Part shown: piece after piece, positions 59,331-64,000 of the stretch | Layout of the letters: every line of letters starts with the position of its first letter | How positions within the stretch are numbered: the first letter of the stretch is position 1 | Assembly: GCA_048939245.1 (NCBI GenBank) | Contig: JBHLPR010000002.1 | Span: forward strand, 1 to 64,000 | Direction of reading: 5' to 3' | Length of the DNA stretch: 64,000 nt | Origin: Promethearchaeota archaeon | GTDB lineage: Archaea > Asgardarchaeota > Hermodarchaeia > Hermodarchaeales > Hermodarchaeaceae | Notes under the pieces: generated by a model | Told to the model about the DNA's origin: nothing | Databases searched by the model: none | Seen by the model: only the letters and a program-made list of their open reading frames with translations | Program-made: the position numbers and the translations under genes

Positions 59331-62300
59331 ATGAGACGCGTCTCAGTCCCCACACTGGTATTCATTAGCTTACTACTAGGTAGTCTCCACTCAGTGAACC
59401 TTCTCATTGAAGTATCTCCGTTTGCAGTTCTTGCCATCCCCACTGAAAAGTCACTGAATACAGCCCCATCCCTTCCTTATTCTAGCGCTGTTTCTCCACC
59501 TGGATCGTCCCCTCCATCCGTAGCTTATGTGACAAATACCTCAGACCTTGCCTGCTGGCAACGCAGCTTCGCAAACCGTGTGAATGAGACGCGTCTATTG
59601 GGTCTTCTCAATTCACTCTCGAGCTTCGATTGCCGTCATCCCTTCAACACCGATGGGAACGCTTCAATAGAATTGGTTACTTCCTATCTCACATCGATGG
59701 GTCTTCCTTATACTAGTGACTGGTTTCTAATCCCCAAGGAAATATGGACAGGTTCTGGGTATGTTTATCAGAATTACTGGACACGAAACCTCTATCTCAC
59801 TCCCTGGGAAGTTAATCCCTCCGCACCAACTCTCATTGTCACCTGTCATCTTGATTCCGCACGCCATGGATTACTCGGAATGTCGACGACGAATGCCCCA
59901 GGAGCAAATGACAATGCAGCAGGTATAGCATCAATTCTCGAAGCTCTTCAGATCCTAGCAAGAAGTTCTGAATCCTCCCAGAATTGGAATGTTCTCATCG
60001 CATTCCTCGGGGGCGAAGAAGGAAATGGCACACTCTCCTTGTTAGGCTCTCGACAACTCCTCTCTCATGGACTTGAGACATTAGCAATCAATCCTTCCAC
60101 TTCCTTTGTTCTCAATATTGATGAAATTGCTTATCAAGGAGCCATCAGTCCCTCAACCCTTGCCTTGTATCGGTACCTTGACGATGAAATTGCTCCACTC
60201 CAACTGCCCCTTACCATGACTTCAGAAAATTTAAACGTTAAGTTGATTGATACTCAAAGCCCGCGTACGCCCGATTTCGCAGCAATTCAAAGTGATGCTG
60301 GTTGGTGTATTTCAGAATGGGCCTATTACACAAATAATATTCCCTCTCTAACGATATCCACAAGTCCCTACCCAGACCCCTATAAACATACCATCTATGA
60401 TGGAATCTCACGTTGTAGCCTTGTTAACATCGTAAACACAACCAAACTATTCATTGGGCTCATTCTAGCCCTCACAATTGACCTCCCTGCGAACTCCCCC
60501 AATAATGCTGCTGCTTGGCTACCAATCCTCTCGCAGGAGGCTAACATCACTACCACTGATTACCTAGATCCCTCTCTATCAACCTATCAAGCTCTTGTAT
60601 TGGATCCCCTCATTACCATCGATGCCAGTGTCACCGCTCAACTACTCCAGGCTTCGCTTCCTCTGCTCTTACTCGGAAACGCTGGTGCCTATTTTCTTCA
60701 CCTCTCCAATGGCTTTTCCGTCACAACTCAAGGAATCCTTGCTCTGCAGGTCCAAGGACTCAAAGCCTTTCATCCCATCATTCAAAGTCCTTGGCTACTT
60801 GAAAACGAAAATGCACAACTATTTCAGAACTGTTCAACTGTCCACGCAGTTTCCTCCATCTCTGCAAGTCTCGTCCTCGTGGGCAATTCTACGTGGTGTT
60901 CATTGGTGTATTTACCACCCCCACTAATGGAGCTCCCGACACTATTTCTCGGATTAGATTTGCCGGAAAGCCAAATAAGCAAACAAATCTGCGCACAAGG
61001 GTTAGCCTGGCTCTTAGATAACAACCCAGTTGGAGTCTGCTTAGGAGTCAATCAACAAGCTCCTTCTGTAGGAGATTCACCCCTGCTCAATATTTTTGTC
61101 GGGGATTTAGCAAACTGGACAGGACACCCCAATGAGGCAATTCGACTCAACATCACGGTTCTTGGATCCTCAGAGGAATATCGCCTAATTACTAATGAAA
61201 CGGGGATTGCACAACTTGAACTCTTCCTTAAGGCACCCACACAATATGATGTTAAGGCACAATCGACATCTGGATTAGAATCCTTCTATACTCTCACGCC
61301 ATTATCTGTCTGTTCAGCCACCTTACAATATCCTCATTCCATCAAGCAGGGAGAGCGTCTCTCAGTTACTTGCTTCATCAATTCCTCTTGGGACACATCA
61401 GCTTACATCAATCTCAGTCTCTTTGCAGAAGAAGTAGGGGGCGTCTTCAAACCAAATCTACTTCTCATACCTGGTGAAAACTTCATTCATCTAAACCTTG
61501 AAATCCTTCCCAACTGTCCCCCTCAAACCTACAACCTCACCCTATTCATACACGCTTCTCCCCTCCTCTTATTTACCGACCAATTCCCATTGCAGGTACA
61601 GACGGCTTTCATACTCACTATCATCGAGCTTCCAGATAATACCTTACAGAATCAACCCTTTCCTTTAACAGTGAATCTAACAAACCTTGGGTCTCAGGGT
61701 AGGGCATTTGAAATCGTTGCTAATCCCAACTTCGTAGGAGCCACCCAAGTCATTATTCAAAGCAACGAGACTCGATCCATTACATTCCTCATTCAATATA
61801 TGCCCCAAACGGTCATAGACACAGGATTCCGTCAGCTGTCTCTCACACTCCTCACAATGAATCAACAAATCCTCACTATCGAAAATACACTATTTGTTGG
61901 CTACGCCATTGTCAATCTCGTCATTACCTTCCTCCCACCCATTTTCCTATGTGGACTCTGTATTCTTGGAATTTTCTGGTTGAGAAACGCAAAACGCTCC
62001 CAAAAACAAACACCGTCAGAAGCATCCGCGCCTCCAATAACTACTCCCTCAAATGAACAGGTAATGCAAATTCAATTGGGTACAAACTCCGGAGAAACAA
62101 GAACACAACTGCCAATCAACCCTCAAGTAAAGCGACAGTTGTCACAAGTAATCCAGAAGTTAAGACTAGCCAAAACCAGCTCAAAATACTATTCAAATGA
62201 TCGTATAGTCCTCGCCTGGGAAAAGAATGGTCAAGAACTCCACATCATTCTCCAAGGAGAAAACCACCAACTCATCCAACAGCTCTTCAGACTGCTCTCG

Positions 62301-62348
62301 GATTCAACCCTCTTTCAAACCCAACAAGGTGATTCAACTGATTTCTAG
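59331..62348 (+). CDS. Membrane-anchored M28 metallopeptidase with Ig-like domains and cytoplasmic tail
   Basis: CHLDS, GANDNAAG, GGEEG, NIDE and YKHTIYD ligand motifs; signal peptide; TM near the C-terminus. Confidence 0.87.
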   Translation: MRRVSVPTLVFISLLLGSLHSVNLLIEVSPFAVLAIPTEKSLNTAPSLPYSSAVSPPGSSPPSVAYVTNTSDLACWQRSFANRVNETRLLGLLNSLSSFDCRHPFNTDGNASIELVTSYLTSMGLPYTSDWFLIPKEIWTGSGYVYQNYWTRNLYLTPWEVNPSAPTLIVTCHLDSARHGLLGMSTTNAPGANDNAAGIASILEALQILARSSESSQNWNVLIAFLGGEEGNGTLSLLGSRQLLSHGLETLAINPSTSFVLNIDEIAYQGAISPSTLALYRYLDDEIAPLQLPLTMTSENLNVKLIDTQSPRTPDFAAIQSDAGWCISEWAYYTNNIPSLTISTSPYPDPYKHTIYDGISRCSLVNIVNTTKLFIGLILALTIDLPANSPNNAAAWLPILSQEANITTTDYLDPSLSTYQALVLDPLITIDASVTAQLLQASLPLLLLGNAGAYFLHLSNGFSVTTQGILALQVQGLKAFHPIIQSPWLLENENAQLFQNCSTVHAVSSISASLVLVGNSTWCSLVYLPPPLMELPTLFLGLDLPESQISKQICAQGLAWLLDNNPVGVCLGVNQQAPSVGDSPLLNIFVGDLANWTGHPNEAIRLNITVLGSSEEYRLITNETGIAQLELFLKAPTQYDVKAQSTSGLESFYTLTPLSVCSATLQYPHSIKQGERLSVTCFINSSWDTSAYINLSLFAEEVGGVFKPNLLLIPGENFIHLNLEILPNCPPQTYNLTLFIHASPLLLFTDQFPLQVQTAFILTIIELPDNTLQNQPFPLTVNLTNLGSQGRAFEIVANPNFVGATQVIIQSNETRSITFLIQYMPQTVIDTGFRQLSLTLLTMNQQILTIENTLFVGYAIVNLVITFLPPIFLCGLCILGIFWLRNAKRSQKQTPSEASAPPITTPSNEQVMQIQLGTNSGETRTQLPINPQVKRQLSQVIQKLRLAKTSSKYYSNDRIVLAWEKNGQELHIILQGENHQLIQQLFRLLSDSTLFQTQQGDSTDF

Positions 62349-63180: not shown

Positions 63181-64000
63181 GTGAGTACTACCCGGCTTGG
63201 CCGCGTTGCCAAAGAGGCACTGCTCCTCATTCGGAAATTTATGGGTCAGGGCGATTTCCAACGGGCATCCAATGCAGCCCTCAACGCGGCAGAAGCCTTC
63301 AACGAAATGGCCAAGCACTCCTCTGGATCCTCTTCCAAGCTTGCCTATCAACGAGCCCGGACCCTGGTGGAAATCACCAAAGCTCTAAGACGTGAAGAAC
63401 CTCTACCCGTCCATCTGGTTGACGCGCTGGACAGTTTCTTCCTTGAAGACAAAGAACCGCTACCCCCGCCACCGGTCAATGAAGAAGAATCACCAGTCCT
63501 AGAAACCACATCTACAGAAGACTCTGATGAATCGATGGAGCTCGAATCCGTCTTGCAAACCTCAGAAGCGATGGAGCCGACACTTCACCAACTACTCAAT
63601 GGAATTTCCATTGCTTGCACACTTGTTGAAATGCTAGAACGCGCAACCCAAAGCATTCGAATTATGGTCCAAAATCTGACTGATGTCAAAACAATTGCCA
63701 TTGGCACGGACTCCTGTGAAGTAAACCTCCTAGATCGGCTAATCGCAAAAGCGAACGAAGGTGTAAAAATCCGCATTATTATCCGCGAACCCGAAGCATT
63801 TGGTGCGGCTTCTAAGCACTTCCAAGAAGCTGTCGAAAAACTCCTCCAAGAAAGCCCAGCCATAGAAATCTTGGTGTGTGCTCAAATGCATATCAAATCC
63901 CTCATCGTTGATGAAACAGAAGTCCTTGAAGGTAGTGCGAATTTTACCGCGAAAGGGTTATCCGGAATTGGTGAACAAGCCACATGGACAAACAATTCTG
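63181..64000 (+). CDS. MIT-like helical domain + acidic/Pro linker + phospholipase D (HKD) domain protein, 3' end off window
   Basis: Not in the ORF track. GTG at 63181 after GGGGA; open to the window end; HIKSLIVD......GSANFT at ~63889-63948. Confidence 0.85.
   Translation, partial: MSTTRLGRVAKEALLLIRKFMGQGDFQRASNAALNAAEAFNEMAKHSSGSSSKLAYQRARTLVEITKALRREEPLPVHLVDALDSFFLEDKEPLPPPPVNEEESPVLETTSTEDSDESMELESVLQTSEAMEPTLHQLLNGISIACTLVEMLERATQSIRIMVQNLTDVKTIAIGTDSCEVNLLDRLIAKANEGVKIRIIIREPEAFGAASKHFQEAVEKLLQESPAIEILVCAQMHIKSLIVDETEVLEGSANFTAKGLSGIGEQATWTNNS

Follow-up and report, generated by a model that had tools for sequence, protein, structure and literature searches.

The 64,000-nt window analysed here (C9:1-64000, from a 2.52-Mb, 88%-complete assembly of an Asgard archaeon) ends inside a gene that a preliminary description, made from the letters alone, had read as a fusion of an MIT-like domain with a phospholipase D (PLD) domain, similar in architecture to eukaryotic MITD1. 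The frame starts with GTG at position 63181 of the + strand and is stop-free to 64000, the end of the window. Retrieval of the remainder, which the description had put forward as a check, gave a complete coding sequence at 63181-64122 of the contig (L001:1501-2442) that extends 122 nt beyond the window and encodes 313 aa (P0002), aa 1-273 lying within the window (63181..64000, + strand). We found 46 full-length homologues of ~310 aa (50-88% identity), labelled Promethearchaeota, Hermodarchaeota or Thorarchaeota in their sources. As residues 1-20 are conserved among them, the GTG start is supported, and by sequence criteria the 313-aa frame is a real gene. We refer to this family as A.

The family alignment divides the protein into four modules: a highly conserved N-terminal domain of 88 residues (63181..63444, +), assigned below as a divergent MIT-like domain, with a net charge of +4 and an isoelectric point (pI) of 10.0; an acidic, proline-rich linker at aa 89-133 (63445..63579, +; net charge -14); a PLD-fold domain with a single HKD motif at aa 134-288 (63580..64000, +, reaching aa 273 at the window end); and a His/Cys tail at aa 289-305. 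A model made with AlphaFold from the family alignment contained helices at residues 3-23, 26-45 and 49-70 and a short one at 77-85, followed by a disordered stretch at aa 89-133 and an alpha/beta PLD fold. The open frame, the PLPPPP linker and the two PLD motifs quoted in the preliminary description were all present, and its three N-terminal helices were recovered together with the fourth, which it had not mentioned. That fourth helix (LPxxLVDALDSFY) is conserved in the A-type family, and helices 2 and 3 are nearly invariant. The linker is variable: its length ranges from 36 to 52 residues and its sequence is not conserved. It is nevertheless acidic (median net charge -10) and rich in proline throughout the family, and it is predicted to be disordered, with a predicted local distance difference test (pLDDT) score <50.

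The PLD domain matched the full PLDc_2 model (PF13091) at aa 148-287 with 67.8 bits against a cut-off of 27 (E 1e-18). Its HxK(x)4D...GSxN signature is intact, as had been claimed: HIKSLIVD (63889..63912, +) supplies H237, K239 and D244, and GSANFT (63931..63948, +) supplies G251, S252, A253, N254, F255 and T256. H237, I238, K239, G251, S252 and N254 do not vary among the 24 aligned sequences, and D244 hardly does. The tail, which lies beyond the window and came to light only with the complete gene, is likewise invariant (H289-x4-C294-x2-C297-x4-C302-x2-H305). The highest fold similarity found was to the nucleases Nuc/NucT, while the best match of the family profile to sequences in the PDB was Zucchini (4ggj, 4gel; E 8.5e-4). 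The nearest named PLD families are of defence or nuclease type, and all scored far under their membership cut-offs: 20.9 bits against 297 for NCBIfam NucT (NF010490/NF010492), 42.5 against 100 for DpdK and 29.9 against 133 for DrmC. Since these scores fall short and no DISARM, Dpd or Mokosh partner gene was found in the gene neighbourhood, we rejected membership of a DISARM DrmC/DpdK defence system; grouping with defence nucleases, a danger to its reading that the preliminary description had foreseen, was thus not seen. Because the nearest relatives are NucT, Nuc, Zucchini, DpdK and DrmC, the substrate is somewhat more likely to be a nucleic-acid phosphodiester than a lipid head group; an analysis of charge did not tell the two apart.

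To characterize the N-terminal domain, we compared its fold and its profile with those of known MIT domains. Modelled alone it reached a pLDDT of 92.7, the predicted model is an asymmetric three-helix bundle of about 70 residues, and a structure search with this model returned MIT domains as its top matches. As a reference we built an MIT profile from 25 distinct Vps4 MIT domains of the window genome and its relatives. When compared by hhalign, the A-family N-domain aligned to this profile with a probability of 84% (P 7e-6, score 32.4) over 62 columns at 29% identity, and the alignment runs end to end, from aa 9-74 of the N-domain to MIT positions 13-75. Controls scored much lower: 14.7 and 16.7 for reversed profiles, at most 14.3 for 25 column shuffles, and 10.8-15.5 for a set from the same genomes made up of two tetratricopeptide repeat (TPR) proteins, the two ESCRT-III proteins and one SNAP-like helical protein. 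A weak MIT match in a 304-aa frame of one relative (G029) was rejected, as it belongs to a TPR protein.

An exhaustive HMMER search also yielded more distant PLD relatives with the same Cys tail, several of which carry N-terminal MIT domains detectable from sequence. The Pfam MIT score was 29.2 bits (E 1e-6) in relative P0071 and 21.2 bits in P0056. In a 275-aa homologue from a second Asgard family, f18 (L054:6083-6907, +; genome G053), it rose to 35.9 bits against a cut-off of 30, spanning model positions 2-66 of 66; this protein also has a PLDc_2 match of 72.7 bits, an intact HSK...D/GSANLT signature and the Cys tail. In a maximum-likelihood tree of the PLD module, A, its paralogue B (see below), the f18 form and relatives labelled Heimdall and Loki formed one archaeal clade (95 in the Shimodaira-Hasegawa-like approximate likelihood ratio test), with the bacterial Cys-tail PLDs outside it. 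As several members of this clade have an MIT domain, the N-terminal MIT domain recurs within it. Direct hhalign comparison of the A N-domain with the single N-termini of the f18 homologue, P0056 and P0071 gave nothing. In the closed 3.6-Mb Asgard genome G053 the f18 gene is found immediately downstream of one encoding a DUF2070 membrane protein; P0071 shares this arrangement (L040). P0056, which combines MIT, PLD and Cys tail, is encoded on a Joint Genome Institute (JGI) metagenome contig (L041:1-12771) among PCNA, an RPA-like protein with an oligonucleotide-binding (OB) fold, Hjc resolvase and many small frames; this contig may be viral or part of a mobile element, with genes for DNA metabolism.

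Two further proteins extend the set. Paralogue B (P0189, 274 aa; contig C86:24772-25584, -, of the window genome G000, = L039:5764-6585, -) has an N-domain that hhalign aligned with the reference MIT profile (92%, P 5e-7). In each of the 22 aligned sequences the PLD motif has degenerated: HFN has Asn for the catalytic Lys, and GTAP stands where GSxN is expected, while His and Asp are still there, as is the Cys tail; judged from these motifs, B is a conserved pseudo-enzyme. It was not placed as sister to A in the PLD-module tree, and its gene is transcribed divergently from that of an XPB/Rad25-type helicase. The fourth helix of A is absent from the B and f18 forms. Finally, all four genomes of a sister genus (g2) encode a ~280-aa protein in which an A-type N-domain, including helix 4, is joined to a transglutaminase-like, papain-fold core (L055:528-1364, -, on contig C287 of G017, and in the other three g2 genomes). 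The N-domain of this fusion gave 97.7% by hhalign over 85 columns, and its core matched PF01841 with 25.9 bits against a cut-off of 23. A search with the A N-domain among longer proteins returned only the PLD family, the transglutaminase fusion being missed by the word index. The g2 protein may be seen as an echo of eukaryotic MIT-protease fusions such as calpain-7. As the A-type N-domain occurs on two different effector domains, it behaves as a portable module, as do eukaryotic MIT domains (PMC9477494). The window protein, an apparently active PLD, belongs to a small set of MIT-effector fusions in this lineage, together with the pseudo-PLD B and the transglutaminase-like fusion of the sister genus.

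We also asked what partners the genome offers; the preliminary description would have given up its reading had ESCRT-III been missing and the PLD grouped with defence nucleases. Two adjacent Snf7-family ESCRT-III genes are present (P0257 and P0258; L003:804-2052, -, on contig C19 of G000), scoring 65.7 and 63.4 bits, both over the Pfam cut-off, together with one Vps4 (P0190, 385 aa) whose MIT domain scored 42.8 bits. In genus g2 the Vps4 gene adjoins the ESCRT-III pair. The tail of P0257 contains LPEPE and then a helix with spacing like that of an MIT-interacting motif 1 (MIM1; L-x3-I-x2-L-K); that of P0258 contains LPxVP, which is MIM2-like, followed by a charged helix. Each tail thus has a proline motif and a terminal amphipathic helix, that is, both MIM2-like and MIM1-like elements. 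Both tails are acidic and conserved across the family, while the A N-domain is basic (net charge as given above), as is the MIT domain of the genome's Vps4 (net +8). When the N-domain alignment was paired with that of the P0257 tail for complex prediction, the score was 0.43 (runs 0.35, 0.43 and 0.48) against 0.00 for the best control, which is weakly supportive; agreement between runs was at least 0% of contacts, with a partner pLDDT of at least 73. In the benchmark of this score, 58 of 80 solved complexes reached the mark, as did 2 of 110 mismatched pairs, but a score of 0.60 or less was seen in only 7 of those 80. As MIT-MIM complexes have already been solved, the score may also reflect memory of the model.

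The family is narrowly distributed. We surveyed 27 Asgard families; as many of the genomes are incomplete and strict thresholds were used, absence here means not found in those searched. Within the GTDB family of the window, 15 of 18 genomes had the A-type N-domain, against 0 of 182 genomes from the 26 others (E<=1e-5). Proteins of B or f18 type occurred in 17 of 18 genomes of the own family and 6 of 6 of f18, and in no other family among the 27 sampled. As in the window genome, there are two Snf7 genes in the f18 genomes.

In the window genome the genes downstream of the MIT-PLD gene encode a 587-aa winged helix-turn-helix protein, a 111-aa protein, a weakly Mrr-like protein, a Roadblock/LC7 protein and a longin-like protein, in the same order as in relatives at 68-71% identity. 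The block, 3-11 kb past the window end and syntenic in relatives, contains the Roadblock/LC7 protein at L074:3306-3710 (-; 32.9 bits), a 344-aa protein at L074:5431-6462 (-) that matched the longin domain weakly, and a 190-aa helical protein at L074:10200-10772 (+). On the upstream side lie the genes of an M28 peptidase and a small membrane protein. The former (59331-62348, +) is M28-peptidase-like, 1005 aa long and secreted or anchored; it has numerous N-x-S/T sequons, a transmembrane segment at its C-terminus and a 1008-aa equivalent in a relative (L005).

The explanation that we prefer, and to which we give about an even chance as a whole, is that the MIT-like domain docks a modular phosphodiesterase on ESCRT-III tails. 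The gene product would be a cytosolic enzyme whose N-terminal 88 residues, a diverged MIT domain, most likely dock on the acidic, MIM-like C-terminal tails of the two Snf7-family proteins, and whose ~45-residue disordered linker would tether the single-HKD PLD domain. The latter should homodimerise, so that two His/Lys pairs form one active site, as in Nuc and Zucchini, and the three-Cys/His knuckle at the C-terminus would probably bind zinc. Several observations weigh against this explanation. Pfam MIT (PF04212; gathering score 30 bits) had no match to aa 1-80 at E<=1, the N-domain profile hit PDB sequences only by chance and retrieved no MIT chain, and the N-domains of A and B gave no alignment when compared directly by hhalign (0.2%). 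There was no ESCRT gene in the neighbourhood examined, so gene order lends no functional support. The protein was not found in most of the ESCRT-bearing Asgard genomes searched and is therefore not a core ESCRT component. Furthermore, a mildly acidic PLD core (net -4) disfavours non-specific binding of nucleic acid, and the conserved fourth helix could occupy the MIM groove. Because the Pfam and PDB-sequence searches miss the N-domain despite the profile match, we regard it as diverged and not as a canonical MIT domain; that it is an MIT homologue of this kind is very probable. The original MIT call is thus upheld by fold and by profile-profile comparison and not by Pfam. As for the proposed recruitment to ESCRT, the ESCRT-III and Vps4 genes it requires are there, and we consider binding of the N-domain to ESCRT-III somewhat better than an even bet.

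Two other readings of the N-domain have to be weighed against docking on ESCRT-III. In one, the domain derives from MIT and has been re-purposed: it would not bind ESCRT-III and would serve as a regulatory or oligomerisation module or bind another partner, the PLD acting in DNA or RNA metabolism with no link to the remodelling of membranes. Its own helix 4, for example, could sit in the groove. This would fit the high divergence and missing Pfam match of the domain, its extra conserved helix without counterpart in B and f18, the lack of ESCRT synteny, the position of B beside the XPB/Rad25 helicase and of P0056 among PCNA, the RPA-like OB protein and Hjc, and the fact that the nearest PLD relatives are nucleases. 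However, the domain is still basic, like the MIT domain of Vps4 in this genome, its helices 2 and 3 are nearly invariant, it is found as a portable module on two different effectors, and the complex prediction, with its clean controls, leans weakly the other way; on balance we think re-purposing unlikely, if well worth bearing in mind. In the other reading the N-domain has no relationship to MIT and is a generic bundle of three helices, attached to a defence or restriction-type PLD nuclease like DrmC, DpdK or Nuc. The affinity of the PLD domain to such families speaks for it, but the DpdK, DrmC and NucT scores are far below family cut-offs and no partner genes of DISARM, Dpd or Mokosh are nearby. 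Moreover, the similarity to the MIT profile is specific by comparison with the reversed and shuffled profiles and with TPR and other helical proteins, and clade relatives have MIT domains of Pfam grade at the same position, making this reading improbable.

A third alternative concerns MITD1. The preliminary description had left open whether the protein is ancestral to MITD1 or convergent with it. Direct descent, in which the archaeal protein is the orthologous ancestor of an enzyme that later lost catalysis in eukaryotes, would account for the shared layout, and the layout does parallel that of MITD1 as had been proposed. The PLD domain, however, did not match MIT_C and comes closest to Nuc/NucT: neither a search of the whole genome for MIT_C (PF16565; E<=1) nor the Pfam scan of the protein gave a match, the PDB sequences retrieved by the family profile at E<=10 included no chain of MITD1, and MITD1 was absent from the best 50 Foldseek matches, as was its C-domain from the best 50 PLD-fold entries. 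Since the family was found in only 2 of the 27 sampled Asgard families, convergence is favoured over ancestry. We conclude that the likeness is one of layout and most likely reflects a convergent assembly of MIT and PLD; direct ancestry seems very improbable, more so than any other reading considered here.

To our knowledge, the archaeal MIT domain is known essentially from Vps4/CdvC. We found no description of an archaeal MIT-PLD in the literature that we searched, including the 2024 ESCRT census (PMC10936438) and a domain-architecture survey, and no paper there linking MITD1 with Asgard archaea. In eukaryotes, some twenty MIT-domain proteins, among them kinases, proteases, deubiquitinases and MITD1, are recruited via ESCRT-III tails (PMC9477494). 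MIT-tethered effectors have so far been described in eukaryotes, and the MIT-PLD would be an archaeal form of them. If its N-domain does bind ESCRT-III, MIT-based effector recruitment arose, or arose independently, in Asgard archaea, and the protein would offer a simple test bed for enzyme action at an ESCRT-III polymer. More tentatively, and at somewhat less than an even chance, we suggest that one Asgard lineage has a small MIT-MIM recruitment code in which, besides Vps4, an active PLD, a pseudo-PLD and, in the sister genus, a transglutaminase-like protease all dock on ESCRT-III tails. In that case the tethering of enzymes to ESCRT-III polymers would predate eukaryotes, and the PLD would cut nucleic acid or lipid at ESCRT-III assemblies. 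A tethered nuclease is an interesting possibility, as an association of Asgard ESCRT-III with chromatin has been reported (bioRxiv 10.1101/2021.11.29.470303).

Comparison with known systems places the protein between several of them. With the MIT domain of Vps4/CdvC (Sulfolobus 2w2u and the genome's own P0190) it shares the best structural match, a profile match over the whole domain and the basic charge; it differs in having no AAA+ ATPase, a four-residue insertion in helix 1, the added helix 4 and a score below the Pfam MIT threshold. Nuc (1byr) and NucT (6ehi) are also single-HKD enzymes, bacterial nucleases at ~20% identity, but they are secreted or periplasmic and have neither MIT domain nor Cys tail. 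Zucchini/PLD6, another single-HKD nuclease, has a zinc-binding element; its zinc site is elsewhere in the fold, and it has a mitochondrial transmembrane anchor rather than an MIT domain. The pseudo-PLD DUF1669 domains of FAM83 (5qhm, 5lzk, 4urj) belong to eukaryotic signalling scaffolds without an MIT domain. Calpain-7 (8uc6) combines MIT domains with a cysteine protease; the protease family is another one, and the window genome does not have that fusion. Finally, in human MITD1 (4a5x/4a5z; PMC9477494, citing Hadders et al. 2012), the MIT domain binds ESCRT-III tails and recruits it to the midbody, and the PLD-like domain is described as a non-catalytic membrane-binding fold, whereas HKD is intact in the archaeal protein. 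The latter further differs in its C-domain, which is PLDc_2/Nuc-like and gave no MIT_C match, its extra His/Cys tail, acidic linker and fourth helix, and its narrow taxonomic spread. What the two have in common is an N-terminal MIT-type three-helix bundle, joined by a linker to a PLD-fold domain.
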